From the NCBI GenBank assembly GCA_964631415.1, contig CAZVZC010000043.1, forward strand, positions 1-15,872: DNA of 15,872 nt, written 5' to 3'. Positions 1,495 through 15,843 of the stretch are shown one piece after another. Positions within the stretch are counted from its first letter, which is position 1; every line of letters begins with the position of its first letter. The notes beneath the pieces are model-generated. The model had not been told where the DNA came from. It saw only the letters and a program-made list of their open reading frames with translations, and did not search any database. Position numbers and translations under genes: made by a program. Source of the DNA: an uncultured archaeon. GTDB lineage: Archaea; Asgardarchaeota; Thorarchaeia; Thorarchaeales; Thorarchaeaceae.

Positions 1495-3699
1495 TCAACG
1501 AACGGACGCCCGCACCTTGGCAGACAGAGAAGCCACAGCCTTCTTGTCAGGCCCTACAATGACCACTGGCGCGCATGCAGACTCTTCGCTCACTCCTACT
1601 GAGATGGAGGCCCTCATCGCATCTTTTCTCATAAGCACAAAGGTGAATCCCTCTGTGTGACGTACCGAGTCTATAGCCAGACCTAAAGACACGAGTGCTG
1701 CAACCACTGACTGCAGAAACCGAACACCCTCTACGCCAGTTCGCCGCATGGTTACTGTTTCCCGGTACTCTGAGTCTTTCTTGAACAAGAACTCATGTGA
1801 GGGCTTTGCGTAGAGGACCTGGCGTTCCATGGCTTTCTCAAGAAGGGACGCGGACAATGCGCCAAACTTCCTTGCAGCAATGTCAGAGTCTTCAATGAGG
1901 CGTGTGGGTTCAACTGGAATCGGAGGTTTCTCTCCATCCTCAGATGCACCGACCGCCAGAGTTTCTGCCGGAACCTCACCAGTCCTTGGTGCGGATTCCT
2001 CAGTGATTGCGTACTCGCGCTTCTGTCGTTCAAACAGTGCTTTCACATATTCCCGTATCCAGCCATCCAGAACATTCCAGTCCTCTCTGCTGAGTTTCAG
2101 CGGAGGCCTGGGTACTTCTGGCAACTCTGCAGGCCTGTCCTCCTCGGCCTCAGATGCTCGACCACCAGTAGTCGGAGCTCCGACCTCAGACTCAGGTGCT
2201 TCAGGGGGAAGGAGCTTTGTCGCCTCGAGGAGAGCTGAGAGTCTGTCTGTGCCTCCGTGCTTGGACATGCGAGGACGGGCTTGCATGACAAAACCTCGCC
2301 TGTTCTCTGTGGATTGGTCAAACACCAGAGCGACCCCTCTCGGGAGACCACTGATGAATGCCTTGTCCTTGAACTCCTCGGGCATCACTGCTGGTGCTCT
2401 CTGCTGGAGAGCCTTGATGTCAGCATCATGCGACAGGGAGTGGGAGATCACAATATCGGCCTGAGAGATGGCCTCGTCTGAGACAGCCGATGGCTGTTGA
2501 GTACAGAGTACGAGACTGCAACCAAACCTCCGTCCTAGTTTCGCATAGCTGACAATAGCGTCCTTTGCTGGAGTGCTGCCCGACCTTGGTACCAGCGTCT
2601 GGGCCTCATCCACGATCAGCCATGTTGGGGGAAGCTCTTCCCTAGCGCTCGTTCCTTCATCAGTCCATGCCATGCGATAGGTGAGTATCTGCCTACTGAG
2701 CATATTCGTCAGAATCGCTAGAACTGCGTCTGCATCTGACCCAAGAGGAGCGACATCGACTATCGTGATCCGCCCGGCCACAGCAAGATCTTGGGCACTG
2801 GTGCCGCCAGGATGGAAGACACCCAAGTGCTGAGCACGTCTGAGACGCTGGACAAGAGCAGTCCTCGTGGCGGGCTTGTAAAGGTCCGAAAGACCTGCAT
2901 TCGAGTCGACGCAGTGAATCATATCCTGTATGCTGAAGTCAGAACGTGGAAGCTCTTCCTTTCCAGTGTCTCGCGTATACCCGCGTCGCAGGCTGTCAAT
3001 CACATCATTGATCAGGTTCTCTATCGCCGTGCTCAAGATTCCAGACTTCTCAAGCACGTAGGCCCAGTCGGAAAGCGACAACTCTGACGGGCTGATTGCA
3101 AGTGGAAACAGCTGCGACCTCGTCTTGACCTCATCAGGCAGGTGAGAATATGCGCGGCGTGGAATGTAGACGGCGGCAGGAAATCCCTGAGGATCAAGAC
3201 CCCACTTTCTCAGCAGGTCTGCTTGCTCGGTGTTGGGTTCAATCACCTGTCTAAACACGTCGACTGTGTCAATGACAACGACAGCAACCTCAATCTCCTT
3301 GCGCGCCATCGCGCGCGCCAGTTCCTCAGATATGAGACCGAGCGTATAGCTCTTGCCAGAGCCCCTCTTACCTGCGACGAGCATGACATGTGGACTCACA
3401 AGATCGAGATTCACGGGCATGCCGAACAGGGAGGTCAGAACATCCTCGGAGGACTCTGTGACTGCACCAATGAAACCAATCCCCGTCGAACGATACTTCC
3501 GGTGAAAAGACTCAGACCTGCCAAGTATGACCCCGACGCTCATATCCACTAGTAGCTCAAGCGGGGTCGTGGGTCGCGGACGATACTCAAGGACCGTCTT
3601 TGGAATCAGGTCTACGGGCTTGTCAGCAGCGTTGCGTTCAAGGTCCCGTCCGGTTCCGGCGATGTCATCGGGACTGTCACTAGGGTCACGTTTGTCCAA
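1495..3699 (-). CDS. HerA/FtsK-superfamily P-loop ATPase (DUF87-type) with Pro/Glu-rich linker and C-terminal alpha/beta extension
   Basis: Walker A GKRGSGKSYT, VIDTVD strand, Walker B LIVDEAQ, arginine-finger/Gln motif GRRFGCSLVLCTQQP. TTG start with GGAGG 7 nt upstream and TTTATTGG at 3740-3733. Confidence 0.88.
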   Translation of the reverse strand: MDKRDPSDSPDDIAGTGRDLERNAADKPVDLIPKTVLEYRPRPTTPLELLVDMSVGVILGRSESFHRKYRSTGIGFIGAVTESSEDVLTSLFGMPVNLDLVSPHVMLVAGKRGSGKSYTLGLISEELARAMARKEIEVAVVVIDTVDVFRQVIEPNTEQADLLRKWGLDPQGFPAAVYIPRRAYSHLPDEVKTRSQLFPLAISPSELSLSDWAYVLEKSGILSTAIENLINDVIDSLRRGYTRDTGKEELPRSDFSIQDMIHCVDSNAGLSDLYKPATRTALVQRLRRAQHLGVFHPGGTSAQDLAVAGRITIVDVAPLGSDADAVLAILTNMLSRQILTYRMAWTDEGTSAREELPPTWLIVDEAQTLVPRSGSTPAKDAIVSYAKLGRRFGCSLVLCTQQPSAVSDEAISQADIVISHSLSHDADIKALQQRAPAVMPEEFKDKAFISGLPRGVALVFDQSTENRRGFVMQARPRMSKHGGTDRLSALLEATKLLPPEAPESEVGAPTTGGRASEAEEDRPAELPEVPRPPLKLSREDWNVLDGWIREYVKALFERQKREYAITEESAPRTGEVPAETLAVGASEDGEKPPIPVEPTRLIEDSDIAARKFGALSASLLEKAMERQVLYAKPSHEFLFKKDSEYRETVTMRRTGVEGVRFLQSVVAALVSLGLAIDSVRHTEGFTFVLMRKDAMRASISVGVSEESACAPVVIVGPDKKAVASLSAKVRASVR

Positions 3700-3838
3700 G
3701 GGGCTCCCTCCAGAAGGGCAGGCAATTGAACTCCAATAAACGTTTGTACGAGCGCGCCTTCAAGTGATATTCTAAGAGAGGTTCTCGGGAAAACGTCGAT
3801 GGGCAATGCTCAAAACCACCACGTGTGATTCAGGGGCT

Positions 3839-4630
3839 ATGCAAGAGACGATCCAAGATGGCAGCCTTGTCTTGATCTTCCTCGATGCCAAGAGGAACTG
3901 GATAAGGAAAGTGAAAGCAGGAGAGAGCTTCCACTCCAACAAGGGGATCATCAAGTTCGATGACATCATTGGACGTCCCTTTGGGATTAAGGTTCAGAGT
4001 CATTCCGCCCAGTGGTTCCAGATACACAGACCAAGTCTCACGGACATCCAGATATCACTTGGCCGGAACACACAGATCATCTATCCAAAGGACGCGGGGA
4101 CAATCCTTCTTGAGGCGGGGATCGGATCTGGGAGCATCGTCGTGGAGTCGGGCACTGGGTCAGGAGCGCTCACATATGTGCTCGCGAATGCAGTGGGCTC
4201 TACGGGGCACATCTACACCTACGAGGTCCGTCAGGACATGTACGACGGGGCGAAGAAGAACCTCGAGCGGCATGCGTCGATGGATAGAATCACGATGCAC
4301 TTGAAAGACGTCATGAGTGGCATTGAGGAGAAGGACGTGGATGCAGTGGTATTGGACCTCGCGACACCATGGGAGGCGGTCACGGAGGCCCATCGAGCCT
4401 TGAAAGCAAGCCACTTCCTCGCCAGCTATAGTCCCACGATTGAGCAGGTCATGAAGACATGTAAGGCTCTGGGCGAGAGCGGAGAGTGGGGTATGGTCAA
4501 GACCTTGGAGGTCTTTCAGAGGGAGATTATGGTCAGGGAGAACAAGACTAGGCCCACAACTTGGATGGTTGGACACACTGGCTACATGACATTCGCAAGA
4601 GCCATGGCAGAATCCGACACACTACCATAA
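3839..4630 (+). CDS. trmI: tRNA (adenine-N1)-methyltransferase (m1A58/57), TrmI/Gcd14 family
   Basis: TQIIYPKD, SAM-binding VVESGTGSGALT, YEVR, LDLATPW and C-terminal VGHTGY motifs. Start at ATG 3839 preferred; 3806 is the alternative. Confidence 0.95.
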   Translation: MQETIQDGSLVLIFLDAKRNWIRKVKAGESFHSNKGIIKFDDIIGRPFGIKVQSHSAQWFQIHRPSLTDIQISLGRNTQIIYPKDAGTILLEAGIGSGSIVVESGTGSGALTYVLANAVGSTGHIYTYEVRQDMYDGAKKNLERHASMDRITMHLKDVMSGIEEKDVDAVVLDLATPWEAVTEAHRALKASHFLASYSPTIEQVMKTCKALGESGEWGMVKTLEVFQREIMVRENKTRPTTWMVGHTGYMTFARAMAESDTLP

Positions 4631-4639: not shown

Positions 4640-4689
4640 AGTAAGTGGCGAGTTGTTACTGTCGATTGTTGTCGACGGAGCCTGGTCAT

Positions 4690-5073
4690 ATGACGTACCA
4701 GCATAAGAGAGCGCGTTGCGCAAAGGAAACGAAGGACATCCTTCAGAATATCGTCAAGCTCGGAAAGACTGAGTACGACCTCATGGAAACCACAGAAGCT
4801 GTGAAGGTCGGGAGTCCGTTTGATGATGTTGTTAAGGGTGGGTCGCTGTCTAATGTGCTGCCGGGGCAAGCACGCGCAGTCCTACTCGATGAGGACCATC
4901 AAGAGTCAGACGAAACGGAGATTCAAGTCCATGACCATGATGGCGAGGAGTTCGAAGACTACAAGCCTACGATAGAGGTCAAGCTGGACGCGCAGCAGGC
5001 GAAAGAGATCTTTGAGAAGAAGAGGAAACACAGAAACTACGCCGAGTTCCGATTCGACTATGGTCATGTCTAA
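4690..5073 (+). CDS. Hypothetical small protein with acidic central tract and basic/aromatic C-terminus
   Basis: 127-aa ORF from ATG 4690 with GGAG SD (the ORF track starts at GTG 4645). D/E-rich middle, ends KKRKHRNYAEFRFDYGHV. Codon style resembles neighbouring genes. Confidence 0.72.
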   Translation: MTYQHKRARCAKETKDILQNIVKLGKTEYDLMETTEAVKVGSPFDDVVKGGSLSNVLPGQARAVLLDEDHQESDETEIQVHDHDGEEFEDYKPTIEVKLDAQQAKEIFEKKRKHRNYAEFRFDYGHV

Positions 5074-5087
5074 GGAGAAGGGGCAAC

Positions 5088-5468
5088 TTGACGAGAGACT
5101 CTGAAGTCTTCCAGCTAAAGGAAGAGATAATGGAACTCAGAAAGACGGTGCTTATGCTCAGACAGACCGTCAACCAGCTGAGTGCGAAGATCCAGACCAC
5201 GCCCGAGCGGATACAAGTTTCCAGCGAGAGCGGTCAGTACAATGTCTTTGCAAACCAGGCCAGTATCATTGAGTACGACGTCAGCTGGCAGAGGCTGCTC
5301 ACTCTCCTCGAAGACGCGAACGCAGGTCTGACTGCGACTGAGCTGGCGACAAGATGGGGGAAGTCCCGTTCGCGGACGAGTGAGGTTCTCAACAAGCTCG
5401 TTGATGACGGCCACCTAGTGAAGTTCAGAGACGGTCGTCGAATCAAGTTCAGGGCACCCGATGAGTAA
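5088..5468 (+). CDS. Coiled-coil plus winged helix-turn-helix DNA-binding protein
   Basis: N-terminal heptads (LKEEIMELRKTVLMLRQTVNQLSAKI). C-terminal wHTH (GLTATELATRWGKSRSRTSEVLNKLVDDGHLVKFRDGRRIKF). TTG start after AAGGAG. Confidence 0.85.
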   Translation: MTRDSEVFQLKEEIMELRKTVLMLRQTVNQLSAKIQTTPERIQVSSESGQYNVFANQASIIEYDVSWQRLLTLLEDANAGLTATELATRWGKSRSRTSEVLNKLVDDGHLVKFRDGRRIKFRAPDE

Positions 5469-5576: not shown

Positions 5577-7919
5577 TTGGCCAACGTGATAGGTCGCGCA
5601 AAGAAATCCCAACCGCAAGAAACCTCCTTTGTCGAGAGCGAGGACGTCGTGGTCCATGCCAGTAGACTCTTCGAACTAAACATAACCGCGCAAGATGCTG
5701 TGCGAGAGTTCGCCCTTCACGACATCGACGACACAGAGGGGCTTGAGAGTAAGCGAATCGCAATGCATGATGCCTTCACGCAACTGTATGATGAAATGTC
5801 GGCATTCATCGATCAGATCATGGGTGAGGACTTCGAAATCTCGTACCTCAGAGACAGGGTCGAGAGTGCTGAGGGAGAAACAAAGGACCAGCTTGTCGCC
5901 GGGCTGAAGGAACTCGAAGCCCAGTCCCAAAAGAACATGGCAGACATGTGGATGGCCCGAGTGATGTCTTGGCTCCATCAAGCAGCGGCGGCCAGTGGGC
6001 CCTTCGTCGAGGTTGAGAATGAAGAGAAACAGAAGTCGGCTTCCAAACACTTGGCTGCAGTCTATACGATGTTGGAGAAACCCTTCTCGGCCGTGCCGTC
6101 GAAGTCAGACGGTACGCAGAAGCTCAGAAGAGTAGCTCTGGGCAGCAAGGCCTACTCACTACTGACCGAGTCGTCCACCCGTGATGAGGCCGAGCTTGCA
6201 GACATCCTTGGTAGAAACAAAAGGTCAGAAGCAGAGTTCTACGACGAGTTCCTGAATGAGCTTATCGGGCAAGAGAGCACGTTCAGGCAGGCGTTCAACC
6301 CATTTGACGAACTCATCTGGCGTGACATACTCAGCTCCTTCATATTCGAGCAGGCCACGGATCTCTACAACGAAGCAATTCCCTACTTCGATAAGAGCAA
6401 GACTCCTGACAAGCAGAGAACGGCCATGATCAAATCTTGGAAGCAGAACACGGCCGGCCTGAGCGAAGTCTACCTAGCGATGACCTATAATGACATAGCT
6501 GATGCTCAGATGAGGGCAGGTAACCTTGCGGACGCATCGAAGCTGTATCAGCAGTCTTCAGAAGCCTTTGGCAGAGCAGAGAAGTGCTTCAATGAGGTGC
6601 TGGCATTACGTGCCAATGCAGGGCAATCCAAGAGTGACAAGGACCAGAAGAAGGCACAAGCCCTGTTCTGCAGAGCCGAGGCTTCAGTGCAGACCCTGTC
6701 AGACCTACTTGAGGTCAACAACAAGGAAGAGGCCATCGCCATACTTGGCGACATATTCAAGGACCTGAAGAAAGCGGAAAAGATGGCCAAGAGCCGCGAA
6801 CTCACTGCTGCTATCAAGGAAAACCTGAGAATATTCTCATTCGTGGAACAGCTGCTCAGCAAGAAGATCGATGATCTCAAGAGCATAACAAGCCAGATTG
6901 ATTTCGCTAAGGACTTGAGAAAGACAGGTCTGATTCAGACAGTTAGCAAGTCGCTTGACGAGGCAGGTGCGAAGCTGGCATCAGACCCCGTTGGTTCTCT
7001 CGACGCAGTTCGTGAAGGCCTCAGCAGCCTTGGCATCCTGCTGAGTCTGGAGTCGGAGGACGAGGAAGTAGGCAATCTACGGAACAGGACCTTGGCAATG
7101 CTGAACCACTTGAAATACGTCATTCAGTTCCAGTTGAGCTCACAGATTCAACACGGTGTCAAGTTCATTCTGTCTCGCATTCTTGAGAACCTTCATGCGG
7201 CAGAGGCTGCGACCTATTACAAGGTCATTGGTGAAACTCAACCAGCCGAAGAGCTCACTGACCTAGGAAAGCTCGCCCTCGCAACCGCATACGCATCCGA
7301 GGCGCAGATCTTCTCAAGGCAGTCGGAACAGTGGGCGTTCAGGGCACAGATCGCCCGAGCCAGCGCGTTCAAGAAACTAGAAGACGAGATGGCCGAGTTC
7401 GAGGATGAAGAAGGCATTGAGAACACCGTGAAGATTCATGATGACACAATCATGAGGATCAGGCAGACAGTGGCATCATTCGAGGCGGCTACAAACGAAC
7501 TGAACAGTGTGAAGGGTGAGGCGATTCGGCACAAGAACAACGTCGACCAGCAAGTGAAGCAGCTTCAGGCGGTGGTGCTGAAGTTCAAAGGTGACCTGTC
7601 GAGGATCCTTGGTGCGAAGAGTGACTTTCTAGCTGAGTTCTCGTCAAAGAAGGGAGATGCCTCGAAGGCCATGGTGTACTACTCCGAGGCTACCGACAGG
7701 CTCCGAGAGGCTGTTGGCAACTATACAGTTGCTGCTCAGGTCTTCCAGCAAATGGGTGATGCTCAGGCTGCTCAGACTGTCGACAACAGGGCGAAAACCA
7801 CAGATCTCGTTGCGCGGGGTGTCTGGGACAACAGACAGAAACTCGACAGTGATCAAACACCGGCCTACATGGGCGACAGCGAGCTCACTGCGCTCTATCT
7901 TGGCACTGGGGGACAGTGA
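5577..7919 (+). CDS. Large acidic all-alpha-helical protein with TPR/SNAP-like repeats
   Basis: 780-aa uninterrupted ORF, A/L/E/K-rich, no TM helix. TPR-like units include YLAMTYNDIADAQMRAGNLADASKLYQQSSEAF and SDFLAEFSSKKGDASKAMVYYSEATDRL. TATA-like CTTAAGTA at 5521-5528. Confidence 0.85.
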   Translation: MANVIGRAKKSQPQETSFVESEDVVVHASRLFELNITAQDAVREFALHDIDDTEGLESKRIAMHDAFTQLYDEMSAFIDQIMGEDFEISYLRDRVESAEGETKDQLVAGLKELEAQSQKNMADMWMARVMSWLHQAAAASGPFVEVENEEKQKSASKHLAAVYTMLEKPFSAVPSKSDGTQKLRRVALGSKAYSLLTESSTRDEAELADILGRNKRSEAEFYDEFLNELIGQESTFRQAFNPFDELIWRDILSSFIFEQATDLYNEAIPYFDKSKTPDKQRTAMIKSWKQNTAGLSEVYLAMTYNDIADAQMRAGNLADASKLYQQSSEAFGRAEKCFNEVLALRANAGQSKSDKDQKKAQALFCRAEASVQTLSDLLEVNNKEEAIAILGDIFKDLKKAEKMAKSRELTAAIKENLRIFSFVEQLLSKKIDDLKSITSQIDFAKDLRKTGLIQTVSKSLDEAGAKLASDPVGSLDAVREGLSSLGILLSLESEDEEVGNLRNRTLAMLNHLKYVIQFQLSSQIQHGVKFILSRILENLHAAEAATYYKVIGETQPAEELTDLGKLALATAYASEAQIFSRQSEQWAFRAQIARASAFKKLEDEMAEFEDEEGIENTVKIHDDTIMRIRQTVASFEAATNELNSVKGEAIRHKNNVDQQVKQLQAVVLKFKGDLSRILGAKSDFLAEFSSKKGDASKAMVYYSEATDRLREAVGNYTVAAQVFQQMGDAQAAQTVDNRAKTTDLVARGVWDNRQKLDSDQTPAYMGDSELTALYLGTGGQ

Positions 7920-8228: not shown

Positions 8229-10064
8229 TCATGTCTGTGTGGTCGATCCGCCCATGTTCTCGCCTTGCACTTCTGCATGGCGACCGCTATCGCGCCCATG
8301 CGTTTTCTTGCGGCCATATGCTGCAATGATAAACCATGTCAGTGGTGCCGCAAGGACCAAGATGGCCCCAACAATGGGCACAGACGTGTACGGACTCAGA
8401 TTGTACACTCCGATTGCAGTCAATAGTGCGGGGCCGGCGATGATGTATAGCGACAAAGGATCTGGCGAACCTCTGTTATCGGTTGTCATTGCAAGAACGG
8501 CGAGAACCAACGGAATCCACAGGGTGAGAGGTATGAGTGGTGTGACACCTGAAATCCAGGCGTCGTACAGCTCCGGAATACATCTTATCAATGCAGTTCC
8601 ACCTTCAGGAGTCCAGACCAAGGCTGATTGTAGGGCTGGGAAAAACAGGGCGCACTCAGAAACGGGCGCGTCACCCAGCCAATTATAGGAAACAGATGAG
8701 TAGAATGGTAGTGCCAAGCCCACAATGAACATGATGGTCGGTCCGTTCTGCAGCAATCGCTGTCTGGTTACTCCCTTGAAAGACGGCAACAACTCAACAA
8801 CAAGGGCCAGCAGGACAACTGCTGCTGCTATCAACAAGATCAGCGTTTTCGATTCGACTGCAACGTTCCCGACCTGTACGAATGACAGATCGGTCCTCAA
8901 GATTAAGTCATTGGAGGCGGAAGAATCGACATTGAGGCCGCCACTGCCATAAACCCAGCCCAAGTATTCAATCCTAAGGGTCACCGGGAAACGAGCATAC
9001 CTAGGAAAGTACAGGAAATCAGCAGTCATTGGGATTGGATCGAATCCGTAATACGCACCATCCTGGCCAAGACTAAGCTGACAGATTGGCAAATCGGCAG
9101 ACCACTCAAGATGCAGTTTCACATAGGGGAGCCTAAGAATCATACGGATACCCTCATCTTCGGTCACATTCGCCGAGATAGGTTGAGTATTCGTAATCAT
9201 GTGGTATGACGAACAACCCGCGACTCCCACGTAGTGTCCAACAGGCAAGAACAGGGTTTCGTTTGCTCTGGAAACCAAAACTGTGGCCCAGTTGGTACCA
9301 GAGTCAGCTCTCGTTATGTTAATTGATGGTATTCCGGATTGTAGATGCTTGAAGTAAGGATTGACAAAAAGGCCAATGCCGTCGGTACTCCTGACATCCA
9401 AGGACAACGGCTGTAGCTTAACCGAAGAAGAGACTTCGACTACAAAACCCTCTACTTTGATGCCAAGTATATCTGGAAGCACGCAATATCCGTTAATCAC
9501 CCAGCTGGCTGTCTGAGCCCGCACTTCGTCAAGAGGAAGTGAATAGCTTAGAACACGAGTTTCACCTGACGACAATAGAATTGACGGCATGTACGCGGGA
9601 CCGTATGAACCAGCAAACCCTCTGAGTTGAATGTACATACTCATGTTGACCCCATCTGTTACACCAGTAGCGGTCAAGTTGAATGTCAATCGCGTGACAT
9701 TATACAGTGCAATGCTGAAAGGAAAATACGAGCCGGAGGACGTATCGAATGGGGTAGAGTTCACGAGCACTGTTTGGAGTCTGCCCTCTAGAGCTGAAAC
9801 CTCCAACGAAACACCCGGGGTGCCCTCGATTGGTGAGCCATTCCGGATTGTCATGGTCACTCCGTATTCGGACCCCGTGGGAAACCCAAGAGGGAATGCA
9901 AAGAAACAGGCAAGCAGAACCGTAAGCGCTACTAGCCTTATCCTGCGACTAATCCTGATCTTGTATTTCCCCGGACTGATAGCTGAAGCCGCCTCTGCCT
10001 CAGGCACAGGATGCAGTCTACATGCATCAAGTAATCTTGACAGCATGTCCTTTCTTGTTTTCAT
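8229..10064 (-). CDS. Receptor-like membrane protein: short cytoplasmic N-terminus, one TM helix, about 330-aa beta-rich extracellular region, 5-6 C-terminal TM helices
   Basis: Hydrophobic helix RLVALTVLLACFFAFPLGF. Eight N-x-S/T sequons in the extracellular part (NGS, NST, NVT, NLT, NMS, NIT, NET, NVT). ATG 10064 overlaps the upstream TGA (ATGA); GTG 10070 is the alternative start. Confidence 0.8.
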   Translation of the reverse strand: MKTRKDMLSRLLDACRLHPVPEAEAASAISPGKYKIRISRRIRLVALTVLLACFFAFPLGFPTGSEYGVTMTIRNGSPIEGTPGVSLEVSALEGRLQTVLVNSTPFDTSSGSYFPFSIALYNVTRLTFNLTATGVTDGVNMSMYIQLRGFAGSYGPAYMPSILLSSGETRVLSYSLPLDEVRAQTASWVINGYCVLPDILGIKVEGFVVEVSSSVKLQPLSLDVRSTDGIGLFVNPYFKHLQSGIPSINITRADSGTNWATVLVSRANETLFLPVGHYVGVAGCSSYHMITNTQPISANVTEDEGIRMILRLPYVKLHLEWSADLPICQLSLGQDGAYYGFDPIPMTADFLYFPRYARFPVTLRIEYLGWVYGSGGLNVDSSASNDLILRTDLSFVQVGNVAVESKTLILLIAAAVVLLALVVELLPSFKGVTRQRLLQNGPTIMFIVGLALPFYSSVSYNWLGDAPVSECALFFPALQSALVWTPEGGTALIRCIPELYDAWISGVTPLIPLTLWIPLVLAVLAMTTDNRGSPDPLSLYIIAGPALLTAIGVYNLSPYTSVPIVGAILVLAAPLTWFIIAAYGRKKTHGRDSGRHAEVQGENMGGSTTQT

Positions 10065-10525
10065 TTCCACCCCAGCCGCTCCTTTATCTCTTCGAAGAGT
10101 GTAGCTGCAATGTCAGTTGGCTTCTTTCCCTCCGGAATCGACACACCCCATTCCACCGCCAGCTCCTTCAAGATGCTCTCACACTCGTTGTTCATTTCAC
10201 AGTGTGCGCAGTTTCCAGAGTGGCTGTACCACACCTGAACGCCAATCTTGGGAGAATAGGTGATGTAAGTGTCTGTCTTGTATGCAGCACAATAGCCCAA
10301 AGCGAAACCATGTGCCGGGCTCATCTGAGTCAGCCTAATTCTGTTGACATAGGCAGCGTTGGACAGGAGGTTCTCGATTCTCTGTTCGGCTATTCTCTGA
10401 GACTTGGTTATGAATGGAGCAGAAACATGAAGCTCCTTCGCAATGACAGATGGTCTGGTGTTTTGTCTCCTTTTCAACCAGATTAGATTCTGCTGCTTCG
10501 TAGGGTATCGAAACGCCCAGAGCAA
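10061..10525 (-). CDS. Putative transcription regulator: N-terminal HTH plus His/Cys metal-binding motif
   Basis: HTH-like segment IWLKRRQNTRPSVIAKELHVSAPFITKSQRIAEQRI. Motif QVWYSHSGNCAHCEMNNEC. TTG start at 10525 after GGAGACGAGG gives 154 aa; the longer start at 10669 would run through the promoter palindrome. Confidence 0.8.
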   Translation of the reverse strand: MLWAFRYPTKQQNLIWLKRRQNTRPSVIAKELHVSAPFITKSQRIAEQRIENLLSNAAYVNRIRLTQMSPAHGFALGYCAAYKTDTYITYSPKIGVQVWYSHSGNCAHCEMNNECESILKELAVEWGVSIPEGKKPTDIAATLFEEIKERLGWK

Positions 10526-10547
10526 CGCCCTCGTCTCCAGAAAGGGC

Positions 10548-10568
10548 CTTAACCCTTTTTGGGTTAAG
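10548..10568. promoter_or_regulatory. Perfect 8-bp inverted repeat CTTAACCC-TTTTT-GGGTTAAG, putative operator overlapping the BRE/TATA of the regulator gene
   Basis: Arms at 10548-10555 and 10561-10568. The minus strand reads AAAAAGGGTTAAGG, 23-35 nt upstream of the TTG at 10525. Confidence 0.7.
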
Positions 10569-10731
10569 TATCTACAGCTCCGCCTATAAGGTTTCCGAGA
10601 AACGCCTTCAGGTCCTGGGGCCCAACGGGAGCCAGAGAGTAGAAACCATGATTCAAGCCCGTAAGGCAAGTTTCACTATAATCTTAGCGACCAAGGCCAC
10701 CCGCCTCTGCTCAAGACACGGTCAGCAACAC

Positions 10732-12918
10732 TCAGTTCACAGCGTAGCTCTCCTGGACTGGAACGCTCACAATGCTGGTCGTGTGAAGACGCGTTACGTG
10801 GTACGGAGCAAAGGCAACACCACCGGCGTGGTAGAACTTGCTGAACCATTCTACAAAGTGGAGCCTAAGTGCGTGCATGAAGGCCAAGAGACCCTCGAGC
10901 ATTCCCACGATTATTGAACCCAATACCGCCCCAACCACAGGAAGATAGGCTGGAACCAGTGTCAATGCTCCGCCGGTCTCAGTCCACACCTCAGGAGGTA
11001 TAATCTCAACGCCAAGGATTGAGAGCTCGGGGAATGGAACGATGATGGTGGAGTTCAGAGAAATGAAGATGCCGCTAAGTATGATGTGTACTGTGTTGAG
11101 AGCGAAAATACGAGCATAGCTGACGGTATGGCTTATTGTACCTATGGCGTTCTCAAAGAATATGACAATGCCGTCCATTCCGCCCTTTGCAGATGAAACA
11201 GCCATCAGAATAAACGGTACGATGAATGTGAGCAGCGTGAAGACAAGTGGATTGACTGGAAGCATTGGGTAGACGCCATTGTTGCCTGTGCCATATCCGA
11301 TACCAGCAATCGGGATCCAGAGGTACACTGCTCCCGTAGTGCTGAACCACTGTCCCACTGTGCTGTAACTCACGCCAAAGACCAGATTGATGAAACCAAG
11401 GTACATCCAGACGTAGGACAGAGCCACCATGGCCTCACCGTATGACTTGTGTTTCAGCTTGTTGTAGAGATTGAGCAAGATTCCTAGAGTGATGTGGATA
11501 GCGCCAATCTCAATCGAAAGCTTCAGCATGTGTGCCGAGCGAAAGGGGTTGACCTCGCCTGTGGCCAGCCTGTGGGCGAAGAGCGGCCAAATCGGCTCGA
11601 TCACCGTTTCAGCTCCAAAGAAACTCCCAAAGAGCAGTCCTCCAAGCATAGCAAACAGGCCCATCATCATGAGACCGGAAGCACCTGTCTGCAGATATCC
11701 GAGGGTCGACCCCCAGTTCTGATGCTTTTTCTTTGCTCTCCATGCGATGAGACCTACCAATAGAATCAGAAAGCCCTGCCCGACATCTGCAAAGATGAAA
11801 CCGAATATCAGAGGGAATGATAGGAACATCAGCTTTGTCGGATCCAAGTCGTGCTTGGATGGCACACCGTATGCCGTGACAACACCCTCGGTTGTCTTCA
11901 TGAATGAGGGGTTGTCAAGGTAGGTAGGAGATTCCTCTTCGGCAAAGTCAGGGCGGTCGAACTTCACCTCGAGTGCCGAGCCCGCCCTCTCCTGCAGCAA
12001 GGTCTCGAAACGTTCCTCAGTCCCTTCGGGAATCCAGCCCCATACCTTCAGCGAGTGTTCCGTGTACGCAAAGTAGGACTTAATCTCTATACGACGACGC
12101 TCGATATCGAGGGTTTCCCAAGCGGCCATGACCTTGGGTCCCCACTCGCGAGCAACAGACTTCCTTCTGGTTTCCAGCTGCTTGAGCTCGGTTTCGAGTT
12201 CGACCATCTTCTCCTCCGCTGCACGCACTATGTCTTCCGGGAGCCCAGATGCCTTCTCGGGCACCTCAAATGGCTCGAATCCCAATGCTGAGAAGATGCG
12301 CAAGACTGCCGGCTTCTTGTCAGCTCCGACACTGACACTCGCCACTGATGTGTTCTTACGCACTGGAATCGACCTAAAAGCATAGGCACCTTCTGTGACC
12401 TCGTTCAGGCTCCACTCCAACTGGCTCACGCGATTTGCGGGCACGACGCCGGCTGTTATGAAGGTGTATTCAGTAGTGGTCAGTCTGCTGAGGTCGAGGC
12501 CTAGAGGAGCAAGTGAAACAGCAACATCTCTGATGCTTCTCTGCCGGTCCAGTTCAAGCCTGACAGTGGCAATGCTCTTCTCAATCTCGAGTGATTCAGG
12601 CTCCACCGACTTAATCACTGTGGCAACGTATTCCAACGAGTCCGAGAGACTTGTGTCATTGACATCGTCCATCATGCCTGAGTGATGCTGGACATCGAGC
12701 TTCAAGAACGAAACGAAACTGTTGCAGCGGTCCAGACCGGCGAACACAGCCTCCTCGTCCCTGGACCTTTTCAGTTCAGTCACACCGACCTGATGACGCA
12801 CGTCTATGAACTCGAAGAGACCGAACTCCTCCAGCGCCATTATCACTTGTCGTTCAAGGTCTCTGTGCGCCACCACCTTGGCAATCATCATCTTCGCAGG
12901 ACTCATTGTCAGATGCAT
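10732..12918 (-). CDS. atpI: A/V-type ATP synthase subunit I (a)
   Basis: Soluble coiled-coil N-terminal half, GWIP, PT-x-L-x-N-P, YGVP...LDPT, FADVGQG, essential Arg in HTVSYARIFAL, and LRLHFVEWFSKFY. ATG 12918 has GGTGA 8 nt upstream; 12927 and 12930 are alternatives. Confidence 0.96.
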   Translation of the reverse strand: MHLTMSPAKMMIAKVVAHRDLERQVIMALEEFGLFEFIDVRHQVGVTELKRSRDEEAVFAGLDRCNSFVSFLKLDVQHHSGMMDDVNDTSLSDSLEYVATVIKSVEPESLEIEKSIATVRLELDRQRSIRDVAVSLAPLGLDLSRLTTTEYTFITAGVVPANRVSQLEWSLNEVTEGAYAFRSIPVRKNTSVASVSVGADKKPAVLRIFSALGFEPFEVPEKASGLPEDIVRAAEEKMVELETELKQLETRRKSVAREWGPKVMAAWETLDIERRRIEIKSYFAYTEHSLKVWGWIPEGTEERFETLLQERAGSALEVKFDRPDFAEEESPTYLDNPSFMKTTEGVVTAYGVPSKHDLDPTKLMFLSFPLIFGFIFADVGQGFLILLVGLIAWRAKKKHQNWGSTLGYLQTGASGLMMMGLFAMLGGLLFGSFFGAETVIEPIWPLFAHRLATGEVNPFRSAHMLKLSIEIGAIHITLGILLNLYNKLKHKSYGEAMVALSYVWMYLGFINLVFGVSYSTVGQWFSTTGAVYLWIPIAGIGYGTGNNGVYPMLPVNPLVFTLLTFIVPFILMAVSSAKGGMDGIVIFFENAIGTISHTVSYARIFALNTVHIILSGIFISLNSTIIVPFPELSILGVEIIPPEVWTETGGALTLVPAYLPVVGAVLGSIIVGMLEGLLAFMHALRLHFVEWFSKFYHAGGVAFAPYHVTRLHTTSIVSVPVQESYAVN

Positions 12919-13011
12919 CTGTGGCATCACCGCAGGAAAGGAACTTGGGTCATGGAAACGCCGGGTCGTTGCTCTTTGGACGGACCGACTTACTGTCGCG
13001 CAGTTGCCGCT

Positions 13012-13019
13012 GATTTAAG
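13012..13019 (-). promoter_or_regulatory. Probable TATA box (CTTAAATC) for atpI
   Basis: The minus strand reads CCTTAAATCA, about 95 nt upstream of ATG 12918, implying a leader of about 70 nt. Confidence 0.4.
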
Positions 13020-13280
13020 GTTGGTGCTTCTGGGCCGAAACGCAGACGACAAAGAAAAGCTATGCAGAAGCAAACATAGCTGGGTGGGCGTGTGAAAGCT
13101 GTCCGAATCTCCAATAGTCTTGAACTCTCTCGAATACGAACTTAAATAGCACATGACTGACTCGATGTCTGAAGCGTAGCCGCACAGACCGTCCTCAAGA
13201 AGTACTACCCCCAATGCCATTCTTGGGAGGGCAAAGACTTCTGTGTGCAACTTTGCCCAACTAACAATGAATGGTCAACC

Positions 13281-13288
13281 TTTATCAG
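13281..13288 (+). promoter_or_regulatory. Probable TATA box (TTTATCAG) for atpH-atpE
   Basis: About 50 nt upstream of ATG 13337, with GGAG SD at 13324-13327. Confidence 0.4.
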
Positions 13289-13336
13289 GTGATTGCGTCG
13301 GGAAACCACAGCTTGTCACGGCCGGAGTGTTCCATC

Positions 13337-13657
13337 ATGTGCGCAGCCAATGATGCGATAGACATCATACATGAAGCAGAAGAGAAAGCGACTAAGAGGA
13401 TCCAAGAAGCTGGAATTGCTGTCAGACAGATGAAGGAACAGACTGAAGCAGAGGTCAAGCGGATTCTCCAAGAGGCTGAAAGTCAGACAAAGAAGACAGC
13501 TGCACTCTCCGGTTCAGACATTGCGAAACAGAAAGAAGAGATAGAACGCCGAAGTCTGAAAGACTTGGAGGCCGTCATCAACGGGATAGAGGAGTCTGCA
13601 CGTAACCATCGGACAGCTGCGATCCAAGTTGTTGCCAAGATACTGCTGGGGGAGTAG
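13337..13657 (+). CDS. atpH: A/V-type ATP synthase peripheral-stalk subunit H (G)
   Basis: 106-aa charged helical protein with N-terminal IDIIHEAEEKA pattern and C-terminal AIQVVAKILLGE. Directly upstream of subunit E. Confidence 0.82.
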   Translation: MCAANDAIDIIHEAEEKATKRIQEAGIAVRQMKEQTEAEVKRILQEAESQTKKTAALSGSDIAKQKEEIERRSLKDLEAVINGIEESARNHRTAAIQVVAKILLGE

Positions 13658-13661
13658 TGCA

Positions 13662-14285
13662 ATGACGGGAGTAGAGAGCATAGTCCAGATGATTGAGGCA
13701 AAGACGGCAGAAAAGATAGACCAGATGACCAAGGAAGCCGAGGAACAGAGAGAGATCCGGCTGAAGGACGCTAGACAGAAGGCGGCATCGGTTGCGGAAG
13801 ATATCAGGAGCAAGGCTGAGAAGGAACTGAAATCCGAACTGGCAAAGCACGAGGCAGGCATGAAGCTGAAAGCCAAGTATCTAGTCCTCGGAACGAAAGA
13901 GAAGGCCGTAAAGGATGTCTTGGAATCAGCAGGCAAGGTCGCGAAGAAGGAGATGGAAGGAAAGAAGTGCACCGATATCCTGACGAGATTCGCTGTCGAA
14001 GGTGGCACTGCACTCGGCTCTCAGAACCTCGAAATCGTTCTTCCAGAAAAGCAGAAAGTGACTGTTGACTATGCACAAGTTGCTGCTGCGATATCAAAGA
14101 ATATGGGTCAGAAGGTCACTGTGACAGTCGCCAAGGACACTGTCAGGGCATCGGGCGGCCTCATTGTCCGATCAAGCGATGGTTCGAAGTGTGTAGACAA
14201 CACGTTCGAGGCACGAATGGAGAGACTGACTAGCCGGATGAGGGACGAGGCCGCTAGGGTTCTCTTCCAGAAGGAGAGCGAGTAG
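13662..14285 (+). CDS. atpE: A/V-type ATP synthase subunit E
   Basis: MTGVESIVQMI N-terminal coiled coil and the signature GGLIVRSSDGSKCVDNTFEARM. ATG 13662 lies 4 nt after the atpH stop. Confidence 0.93.
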   Translation: MTGVESIVQMIEAKTAEKIDQMTKEAEEQREIRLKDARQKAASVAEDIRSKAEKELKSELAKHEAGMKLKAKYLVLGTKEKAVKDVLESAGKVAKKEMEGKKCTDILTRFAVEGGTALGSQNLEIVLPEKQKVTVDYAQVAAAISKNMGQKVTVTVAKDTVRASGGLIVRSSDGSKCVDNTFEARMERLTSRMRDEAARVLFQKESE

Positions 14286-14295
14286 AACTGGACCT

Positions 14296-14330
14296 GACGG
14301 AGGACTCTCCCGGAAGAGCACCTCCTAGTC
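14296..14330. terminator. Imperfect stem-loop between convergent atpE and atpK (possible bidirectional terminator or 3' stabiliser)
   Basis: GAC/GTC, GGAGG/CCTCC and CTCT/AGAG pairs around a CCCGGA loop. No oligo-T tract, so the function is uncertain. Confidence 0.35.
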
Positions 14331-14360
14331 GCGGCCTCTCACTCATGCTCCATCAAGGTT

Positions 14361-14762
14361 TCAGCCCGCGATTAGCTGAGGTATGTACCCGAGTAGTAGG
14401 AAGGCAATCACCAGTCCGTAGATTGCGATTGCCTCGATGAACACCACGTAGAGTATGCTCTTACCAAAGGTCTCAGGCTTCTCCGTGATAGCTCCAAGAG
14501 ATGCGGCAGCGGCTGTGCCCATGCCTAAAGCTGCACCAACGCCGGCGAGACCCACGGCAAGACCTGCACCAATCGCAATCCCGAGGATTGCCAAGCCACC
14601 TGCTTCAGTCTGTAGTGGCTCGAGTACTGGCGTCGGCGCTATGCTCAGAGCACTCAGGGCTGCAGAGCTAATCTGCAGAGCCAAGAATGAAGTCACCGTT
14701 GCAAGCAGGGCGAACCCTGCCATAAGCATAATGAAGCTAGTTGTATATCCGTAGATTGTCAC
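14361..14762 (-). CDS. atpK: A/V-type ATP synthase proteolipid subunit K (c), single hairpin with N-terminal hydrophobic extension
   Basis: GLAVGLAGVGAALGMG helix, EKPE loop, ion-binding Glu in FIEAIAIYG. GTG start with GGAGG 10 nt upstream. Confidence 0.95.
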   Translation of the reverse strand: MTIYGYTTSFIMLMAGFALLATVTSFLALQISSAALSALSIAPTPVLEPLQTEAGGLAILGIAIGAGLAVGLAGVGAALGMGTAAAASLGAITEKPETFGKSILYVVFIEAIAIYGLVIAFLLLGYIPQLIAG

Positions 14763-14778
14763 TGGGTTTTGTCCTCCG

Positions 14779-15843
14779 TCACCATATCGTAATCATGCGT
14801 CTTATTATATCGGCTGACTCGCCTCGTTCGATCCCCACCGCAATAGACCTTATGTTCCGTATCTCGTAGAACTTCAAGGTGAAGAAACCTAGCACGGTTC
14901 CTGAGTGAAACGGAAAGGCGCTCATAAGCAGTCGGACCTGCTGGGCCAAGTAGTCCTCAACCGCCAGCTCAACATCAGCGAGGTCTTGTGTTTCGTCATA
15001 AAGCCTTGCGAGCCGTCCTGCGAGCTGTCCATACTTTGTCTTCTCAAGCTGTGAGAGGACTTCTCGCCAAGATGGCTGAATCCGTATTGACTCTGTAAGC
15101 ATTTTCGACTTAGATGTGAATCGGATCAGAGACAAGTCGATAGTGCGGGAGTCTAGCTTGAGCACTAGGGCACGCAGCATTGTCAGGACGTTCCTGAGAA
15201 TCACTCTGGCTTCCAAGAAACCTATGACCCTTTGTCTGTCATCAGCCGACAGTCCTTTGAGAGCCTTTGCCACGGTTCTGAGGAACCACTCCTCAAGCGC
15301 TACTTCAAGCGGGGCCGTCGAGCCTAGGTCCTCGAAAGCGGGGAGTCTAGTGAGCAATGCCACCTTGATGTCCCTAAACGGTATGGCGTCAACGAACTTC
15401 TGGACCGAGCCTGTGTCTACGAGCTGGGAGAACAGATCCACCTGTGCAGGAGAGGTGGGAACTGAGAAACGCAGTATCTCATCTCGCTCGAGCCCAACGT
15501 GAAGCCCGCGCACTATTGATTTCAGACTCTCGGCGAGAAACATGCCCGTATAGGCCTGCGTGAATTCACTGACCCTGCCCGTCAGCGATCGCGCAATACT
15601 GTAGCTGACCTGAGCAAAGTCCTTTGAGAGAACGATTGCCAGCTCATCGGGCGCCGGTGTCTTCTGAGGGGACTCCTTGTTGATTATCGGTCCGTAGTGC
15701 GTGTTTGCGAGGAGCTTCATGAACTCCTCATAGCTGGTGGACTGCAAGAACCGTTCATAGTCGCCAACTGTCAGGAACCGGGACTTAATGGCCCGGACCC
15801 GGGAGTTGACAAAACCGTACTCGCTTGCAGCCTTTATGGCCAT
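14779..15843 (-). CDS. atpC: A/V-type ATP synthase subunit C (d/AC39 family)
   Basis: N-terminal YGFVNSRVRAIKSRFL and C-terminal EIRNIRSIAVG motifs. 354 aa, adjacent to atpK. Confidence 0.93.
   Translation of the reverse strand: MAIKAASEYGFVNSRVRAIKSRFLTVGDYERFLQSTSYEEFMKLLANTHYGPIINKESPQKTPAPDELAIVLSKDFAQVSYSIARSLTGRVSEFTQAYTGMFLAESLKSIVRGLHVGLERDEILRFSVPTSPAQVDLFSQLVDTGSVQKFVDAIPFRDIKVALLTRLPAFEDLGSTAPLEVALEEWFLRTVAKALKGLSADDRQRVIGFLEARVILRNVLTMLRALVLKLDSRTIDLSLIRFTSKSKMLTESIRIQPSWREVLSQLEKTKYGQLAGRLARLYDETQDLADVELAVEDYLAQQVRLLMSAFPFHSGTVLGFFTLKFYEIRNIRSIAVGIERGESADIIRRMITIW

Follow-up and report, generated by a model that had tools for sequence, protein, structure and literature searches.

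A candidate archaeal autorepressor with a Cys/His site, encoded with interchangeable membrane proteins that share a short N-terminal tag

In several archaeal lineages, a small HTH regulator with a Cys/His site is encoded directly upstream of membrane proteins of about 30 otherwise unrelated groups; these proteins share one conserved N-terminal tag, and the promoters of the operons carry conserved palindromes. The reading we favor, and consider moderately probable, is that the regulator is a dimeric, Tfx-related autorepressor acting on the palindrome in its own promoter, and that its C-terminal metal domain docks the portable tag of the co-translated membrane protein or proteins. The regulator family has no name yet, and the module looks like an apparently undescribed link from the cell surface to gene control; a literature search found no paper describing it. 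Sigma factors are absent from archaea, and few paths are known by which these organisms connect the cell surface with transcription.

Locus, regulator and membrane partner

The window analyzed here is a stretch of 15,872 nucleotides that makes up the whole of contig C43 of a Thorarchaeia genome (2.16 Mb, 85% complete), and the names carried by homologs of the regulator come from Thorarchaeota. Upstream of the module, in the same orientation, are clustered V/A-type ATPase genes, and at its other end the module is convergent with a long helical-repeat gene. The ATPase genes occupy window positions 10732-15843, with the I gene confirmed by Pfam and H/G, E, K, and C judged from sequence. Also present are genes for a HerA-like ATPase with a long C-terminal extension (1495-3699), a TrmI tRNA methyltransferase (3806-4630), a coiled-coil and winged-helix protein (5088-5468), and a 780-aa TPR/MIT-like protein (5577-7919), along with ORFs without annotation at 1032-1397 and 4645-5073. 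In one close relative (L199) a TPR gene precedes the module instead, so its genomic position is not fixed. The features of the module are as follows.

10585-10596, minus strand: likely BRE/TATA element of the operon promoter (CTTATA, purine-rich BRE), read from the sequence and kept in L197-L199; function assigned by the archaeal promoter consensus
10548-10568, either strand: candidate palindromic operator with perfect 8-bp arms over the predicted start site, running from about -8 to +13 with CTTATA as the TATA element; unique in the genome, kept in close relatives, with family-wide 6-N8-6 palindromes in the same place
10529-10538, minus strand: Shine-Dalgarno-like GGAG/GAGG 5' of the TTG start, from sequence; homologs begin at the same residue
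10061-10525, minus strand: regulator, 154 aa, with sigma4/Tfx-like HTH, long stem helix, 4-stranded beta-meander, H-x3-C-x2-C-x5-C and two helices (AF2 model, fold searches, alignments)
10346-10498, minus strand: HTH and stem helix, regulator residues 10-60, with Ala at recognition-helix position 36 (family: Arg) (alignments, fold searches)
10181-10222, minus strand: predicted metal site H102, C106, C109, C115 (Zn or 4Fe-4S) (alignments)
10061-10064, minus strand: ATGA stop/start overlap, read as translational coupling; -4 is the commonest junction in the family (59/167)
8229-10064, minus strand: membrane partner, 611 aa, probably 6 TM with both termini inside; one of 16 members of a Thorarchaeia partner family
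10002-10064, minus strand: cytoplasmic N-terminal tag, partner residues 1-21, an amphipathic helix and then A-C15-R-L-H-P; equivalent of the DUF1673 MGWCP motif and the sole such tag found in the genome
9879-9935, minus strand: predicted first transmembrane helix, partner residues about 44-62
8853-9878, minus strand: all-beta ectodomain with a jelly-roll (96-215, CBM/TNF-like, Z 8-9 in fold comparison), further beta domains and 8 N-glycosylation sequons
8310-8852, minus strand: C-terminal multi-TM region; 433-580 weakly like the 4-TM fold of claudins (Z 9.2, short of the level at which helical-bundle matches are trusted)

The regulator starts with the TTG at 10525, which is preceded by the GGAG/GAGG ribosome site. 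A 202-aa reading from 10669 was rejected because homologs begin at its residue 49 and the ribosome site stands before 10525. In the AF2 model (pLDDT 92), three helices with a long stem lead into a four-stranded meander, then into the loop carrying H102, C106, C109, and C115, and finally into two helices, in keeping with the 154-aa HTH protein with an H-x-G-x-C-xx-C-x5-C motif named in the preliminary description (HTH helices, residues 10-60). Residues 1-60 aligned to region 4 of SigL, SigH, CnrH, and SigW at Z 4.4-5.0, and weak matches to TIGR02937 and TIGR00721 were obtained with 18 and 16, respectively, of 40 regulator homologs. A Tfx/EnfR-type HTH with a long stem was likewise present (8HNO, Z 4.9, rmsd 1.9, 51 residues), and EnfR/Tfx was the best Foldseek and PDB-sequence match, limited to residues 5-55 with a whole-chain TM-score of 0.32-0.35.

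The regulator is neither a sigma factor nor a Tfx member. Sigma region 2 had no Pfam match among the 40 homologs; the HTH begins at residue 10, and the remainder is beta-meander and metal site. TFX_C (PF14601) gave no match at E 0.1 for the window regulator and was not among the families listed for the 40 homologs. The Atlas places the regulator in separate, unnamed archaeal clusters, and for its C-terminal half, searched as part of the whole protein, no known fold was found. EnfR recognizes an inverted repeat in dimeric form (PMC10570040), and by analogy the stem shared with Tfx/EnfR, taken together with the palindrome, suggests that the regulator would also form an X-shaped homodimer by way of its stem helix.

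The ligand motif reads H102-x3-C106-x2-C109-x5-C115, the first part of which, H-x3-C-x2-C, is an HxxxCxxC. The three Cys are invariant in alignment A6 and the His is less conserved in distant homologs, which would leave room for a ligand from outside. The His-ligated 4Fe-4S family PF10588, the motif of complex I N5 and [FeFe]-hydrogenase, has exactly the ligand spacing of the regulator in a different surrounding fold; its score for the window regulator was 15.4 bits against a cut-off of 27, and 14 of the 40 homologs matched it weakly, below the Pfam cut-off. Since the ZAS core and the complex I motif have the same spacing, spacing alone cannot tell Zn from Fe-S.

The 611-aa partner has the layout described previously, with a short cytoplasmic N-terminus, a large ectodomain, and a multi-TM C-terminus. 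The basic N-terminus of 43 aa (11 K/R, 4 D/E; one Cys) is followed by TM1 at about 44-62, an all-beta ectodomain at about 63-404 that is predicted from its 8 N-x-S/T sequons to be glycosylated, and about five further TM helices. The partner has no Pfam match and does not reach 30.4 bits with PF07895, the HMM score above which a protein counts as DUF1673; neither window protein matched the ArsR or SdpI families. No known family was found for the ectodomain, and in fold comparison its jelly-roll appears to resemble carbohydrate-binding and TNF-like folds only generically. Separately, the four TM helices and beta hairpin at window 8310-8770 (partner 433-580) aligned to claudins/TARP subunits (Z 9.2, rmsd 3.4, 139 residues), below the trusted level for helical bundles; the claudin-like segment is a noteworthy fold for an Asgard genome.

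Palindromes at the regulator promoters

The palindrome over the promoter is indeed perfect, as previously described. Its 21 bp (10548-10568) consist of 8-bp arms and a 5-bp spacer, and the minus strand reads CTTAACCC-AAAAA-GGGTTAAG. It is the sole match in the 2.16-Mb genome to TTAAC-N9-GTTAA and again the sole match to an extended 7-N7-7 pattern with two mismatches allowed; the background rate for any perfect 8-bp inverted repeat is 0.19 per kb, or about 2% per 100-bp promoter. The arms are conserved in three close relatives (L197-L199) in which the flanking bases have diverged. Because the palindrome begins 16 nt 3' of the conserved TATA-like element, the likely start site falls within it. 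Another small palindrome, on the upstream side of the TATA box, was set aside because close relatives do not keep it, and neither a second operator nor a wider regulon was found in this genome at its 85% completeness. As a separate observation, the leader at window 10529-10568 can fold as two hairpins, the second of which pairs the ribosome site (-21 kcal/mol, z -3.2), a pairing less well kept in L199.

Candidate operators of the form 6-N8-6 were found at the regulator promoters, with a palindrome particular to each lineage: GTCAAC/GTTGAC directly after the TATA box in methanogens and Archaeoglobi, GTAAGC/GCTTAC in Bathyarchaeia, and GTTAAC- or GTTGC-type sequences in Thorarchaeia, often in two copies, one against the TATA box and one at the start site. 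The pattern, designed from the very promoters on which it was scored, matched 51/82, 37/51, and 23/30 promoters versus 2.4, 1.6, and 0.9 expected, far in excess of shuffles and in excess of DNA farther upstream. Three euryarchaeal genomes contained the motif once or twice, with one copy always just 5' of the regulator. In the clade of the window, the outer base of the operator is C and the spacer is 9 bp, and the regulator has Ala36 in place of the family Arg in its recognition helix, possibly a matched change confined to this one clade.

Archaeal repressors such as NrpR, LrpA, and Phr have sites between the TATA box and the start or over the start. The location of the candidate operator over the core promoter thus suggests an autorepressor rather than a sigma-like activator.

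A shared tag on unrelated membrane proteins

Relatives of the regulator are present in Hodarchaeales, Baldrarchaeia, Bathyarchaeia, Archaeoglobi, Methanomicrobiales, and Methanosarcinales, and genomes of Thorarchaeia carry from none to about seven close copies in addition to one distant single-copy paralog (0-8 matches per genome). Neighbors and palindromes were tabulated across archaea, and both the downstream membrane gene and the promoter palindrome proved to be conserved. The downstream gene encoded a predicted TM segment in 159 of the 167 regulator loci with a readable downstream frame, and the partner bodies fell into 36 clusters, a few of them spurious ORFs, or about 30 unrelated groups that include DUF1673, DUF6159, SdpI/DUF1648, AglB-like proteins, and large secreted domains. 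The earlier proposal of a conserved regulator with an interchangeable membrane partner is thereby upheld, as is the earlier statement that relatives in methanogens and Bathyarchaeia sit upstream of variable membrane proteins including DUF1673; the Methanosarcina partners score above the Pfam cut-off for that family. The ATGA overlap of the preliminary description was located at 10064-10061.

A strict cognate pair, also implied at the outset, was not borne out, as one regulator heads up to about ten tagged genes. The large arrays of Methanosarcinales begin right behind the regulator, and in one of them (L229, 311-6371) a single regulator is accompanied by about ten tagged DUF1673-type genes. 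The second and later genes of arrays retain the tag. Some DUF1673-type arrays include broken copies. Of the Methanosarcinales genomes examined, 101 in all, DUF1673 and the regulator occur together in 44, DUF1673 alone in 2, the regulator alone in 8, and neither in 47, a co-occurrence that is less than independent evidence because it is expected from linkage alone.

A Cys tag preceded TM1 of the downstream gene in 149/167 loci versus 25/166 control membrane ORFs (15%), the controls being membrane ORFs of this genome scored with the same loose tag pattern. The consensus starts with an amphipathic helix, after which comes [W/A/V/Y/I]-C-[P/R]-x-P-P, realized as GWCP in methanogens, WCPQP in Bathyarchaeia, and ACR[LI]P or [RK][VI]CP in Thorarchaeia. 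The tag Cys lies a median of 26 nt past the regulator stop, outside the gene overlap in most loci, and is encoded by TGC and TGT about equally; this position and the synonymous codon variation argue that the tag is not an artefact of the overlap. In a quick version of the regulator tree, tag type tracked clade, and near-identical regulators carried different bodies with the same tag type. No tag-like segment was found within the regulator itself. In two sequences (P0359, P0360) the regulator and partner seem to be fused, but each looks like the result of a one-base frameshift at the usual overlap, and they were not taken as evidence of fusion.

The tag Cys and the Cys site of the regulator were also lost together. 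In a Bathyarchaeia clade whose regulators lack the His and all three Cys, the partners keep the helix and G-W-x-P, and V, I, L, or F replaces the tag Cys in 9/9 tagged partners; a more distant Cys-less regulator has a partner with Leu at the same position. As the co-loss occurred in a single clade, it amounts to effectively one event, from which a tie between the tag Cys and the regulator's Cys site is suggested. A Thorarchaeia clade with the full His/Cys site has partners with a Cys-free tag, W-[SATI]-x-Q-P, and a distant subfamily linked to bPH_2 membrane proteins, including a paralog on contig C7 of this genome, has no clear Cys tag. Intact regulator sites beside Cys-free tags indicate that the tag Cys is not required, and it appears to be an optional element of the contact through which the peptide would dock. 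A complex prediction with 2 regulators, 2 tags of 40 aa, 2 Zn, and their own alignments scored 0.08 versus a mark of 0.32 and was counted neither way.

These observations bear on an alternative account, which we consider unlikely though deserving of weight, in which the regulator is an ordinary local autorepressor of a variable envelope-protein operon and the tag is a membrane-targeting, lipidation, dimerization, or turnover signal joined to it only by linkage and 5'-end duplication. Duplication of one 5' end can indeed produce arrays in which the tagged genes number up to ten, the tag Cys is dispensable in clades whose regulator retains its site, and one genome (G351) has an apparently orphan tagged array, with no regulator found in that genome. 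Such an account fits poorly with protein-level selection on the tag outside the overlap, with the other membrane proteins of this genome being without the tag, and with the rarity of DUF1673 without the regulator. It is further opposed by the loss of the tag Cys where the regulator's Cys site is lost and by the tracking of tag type with regulator clade; as to lipidation, the tag Cys precedes a TM helix, unlike a lipobox.

Proposed mechanism and relation to known systems

In the docking model that we favor, a regulator dimer would bind the palindrome over its own promoter and repress the operon, and the partner's cytoplasmic N-terminal tag, in which C-[PR]-x-P comes after an amphipathic helix, would dock on the regulator's C-terminal metal domain. 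The tag Cys would probably touch or complete the Cys3(His) site, perhaps with a shared metal, and the body behind the tag, be it an ectodomain, a TM bundle, or an enzyme, could be freely exchanged. With bodies so exchanged, the output of the operon would depend on how much of the tag-bearing envelope proteins is present or on whether they are intact, whichever proteins these are; and since the tag would work on any body, it probably binds constitutively. For a repressor that is bound constitutively, a co-repressor role of the tag is a slightly better fit than sequestration gated by a signal, as with SdpI, and if docking does take place we lean only narrowly to the former. A repressor facing up to ten tagged products would, under constitutive sequestration, leave its operon permanently on. 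Co-repression would amount to negative feedback, and tag cleavage or proteolysis, loss, or Cys oxidation would derepress. The types of partner point to envelope stress or surface ligands as the putative signal. More tentatively, the module may represent a pan-archaeal principle of transmembrane signaling, in which a Tfx-like factor receives a Cys for its Zn or Fe-S site from a 15-residue tag on dozens of unrelated membrane proteins. A single factor would then monitor a whole envelope array for its abundance, integrity, or redox state, and the module would do with different parts what ECF/anti-sigma pairs do in bacteria.

The likeness to bacterial ECF sigma/anti-sigma pairs (RseA, RsiW, RslA) drawn in the preliminary description holds in part. 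Coupled genes, a sigma4-like HTH, a short cytoplasmic N-terminus with TM and outer domain, and an HxxxCxxC are common to both; the module differs in lacking sigma region 2, in having its operator over the core promoter, and in that one regulator can head many partners. The ZAS anti-sigma domain has an HxxxCxxC with an upstream fourth ligand and is located on the anti-sigma factor, whereas here the motif is on the DNA-binding protein, after the beta-meander, with the fourth ligand downstream, and the ZAS helical domain with an upstream fourth ligand is absent from the membrane partner.

A regulator with ECF-like logic, acting as an activator held inactive by the tag and released by cleavage of the partner (regulated intramembrane proteolysis), is the strict form of the preliminary interpretation and a reading we regard as improbable. 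Its HTH is of the sigma4 type, many partners resemble anti-sigma factors in crossing the membrane once, between a short tag inside and a large domain outside, and constitutive binding with co-expression would be self-consistent for an activator. In many Thorarchaeia promoters another site also adjoins the TATA box on its upstream side; that site, however, covers the BRE position, and the universal site, between TATA and start or over the start, is where archaeal repressors bind. Sigma region 2 is absent, moreover, and no second operator was found in this genome. A toxin-antitoxin-like or defense module, with the tagged proteins as harmful effectors neutralized by an autorepressing regulator, is very improbable: overlapping genes, autoregulation, exchangeable partners, and a patchy multi-copy distribution (0-8 matches per Thorarchaeia genome) would suit it, but the partners are reminiscent of proteins of the envelope, of immunity, or of the surface (SdpI/DUF1648, bPH_2, M48 peptidase, AglB-like, large secreted domains), tagged genes exceed the regulator by up to ten to one in arrays, and PADLOC 2.0 gave no match to known defense systems.

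By analogy, SdpR/SdpI would be at least as close a counterpart of the docking model as ECF/anti-sigma pairs. In Bacillus subtilis, SdpR and SdpI form a two-gene operon of an autorepressor and a membrane protein that controls it from the membrane (PMC2910880, citing Ellermeier 2006). The operon layout is alike, and one methanogen partner is an SdpI/DUF1648 protein with the tag added. SdpR is of the ArsR type and is bound by the second half of SdpI (PMC2910880), whereas in the present module a Tfx-like regulator carries a Cys/His site and would be contacted through a portable tag at the N-terminus of about 30 unrelated bodies. Tfx/EnfR (PF14601, TIGR00721; PDB 8HNO, 8HNP) shares the archaeal sigma4-like HTH with a long stem helix (PMC10570040); the regulator differs in its other C-terminal domain, with a Cys/His site and no TFX_C match, and in its membrane partner, none being reported for Tfx. 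On the features tested, the module falls outside ECF, ZAS, Tfx, and SdpR/SdpI, yet it would work like known membrane-controlled regulators.

The tag found here is the MGWCP motif that was noted for the Methanosarcina expansion of DUF1673/arCOG06827 (PF07895) in passages of PMC4158269 and PMC4390880 that describe just this expansion and its motif and mention neither a regulator nor an operator nor a function. The window partner shares only the tag with DUF1673. The module, which is spread over Asgard archaea, Bathyarchaeia, Archaeoglobi, and methanogens, gives context for that unexplained expansion and its motif. If the docking model is true, membrane proteins could be wired to a promoter by means of a portable tag; the model is directly testable, as the contact it proposes involves only a short peptide and genetic tools exist for Methanosarcina.

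Several further relatives were observed. The tag also occurs on AglB/STT3-like membrane glycosyltransferase-type proteins (L231, 1374-3149; L170). The distant single-copy paralog of this genome (G000, contig C7, 26899-28960) is conserved across Thorarchaeia; palindromes of its own mark its promoter, and it is followed by two bPH_2-like membrane genes, a layout resembled by that of L215, with an ABC transporter. A very distant two-Cys relative (L213, 1031-2240) has the reversed gene order, membrane gene first, and a GTAAAC-N8-GTTTAC palindrome after the TATA box.
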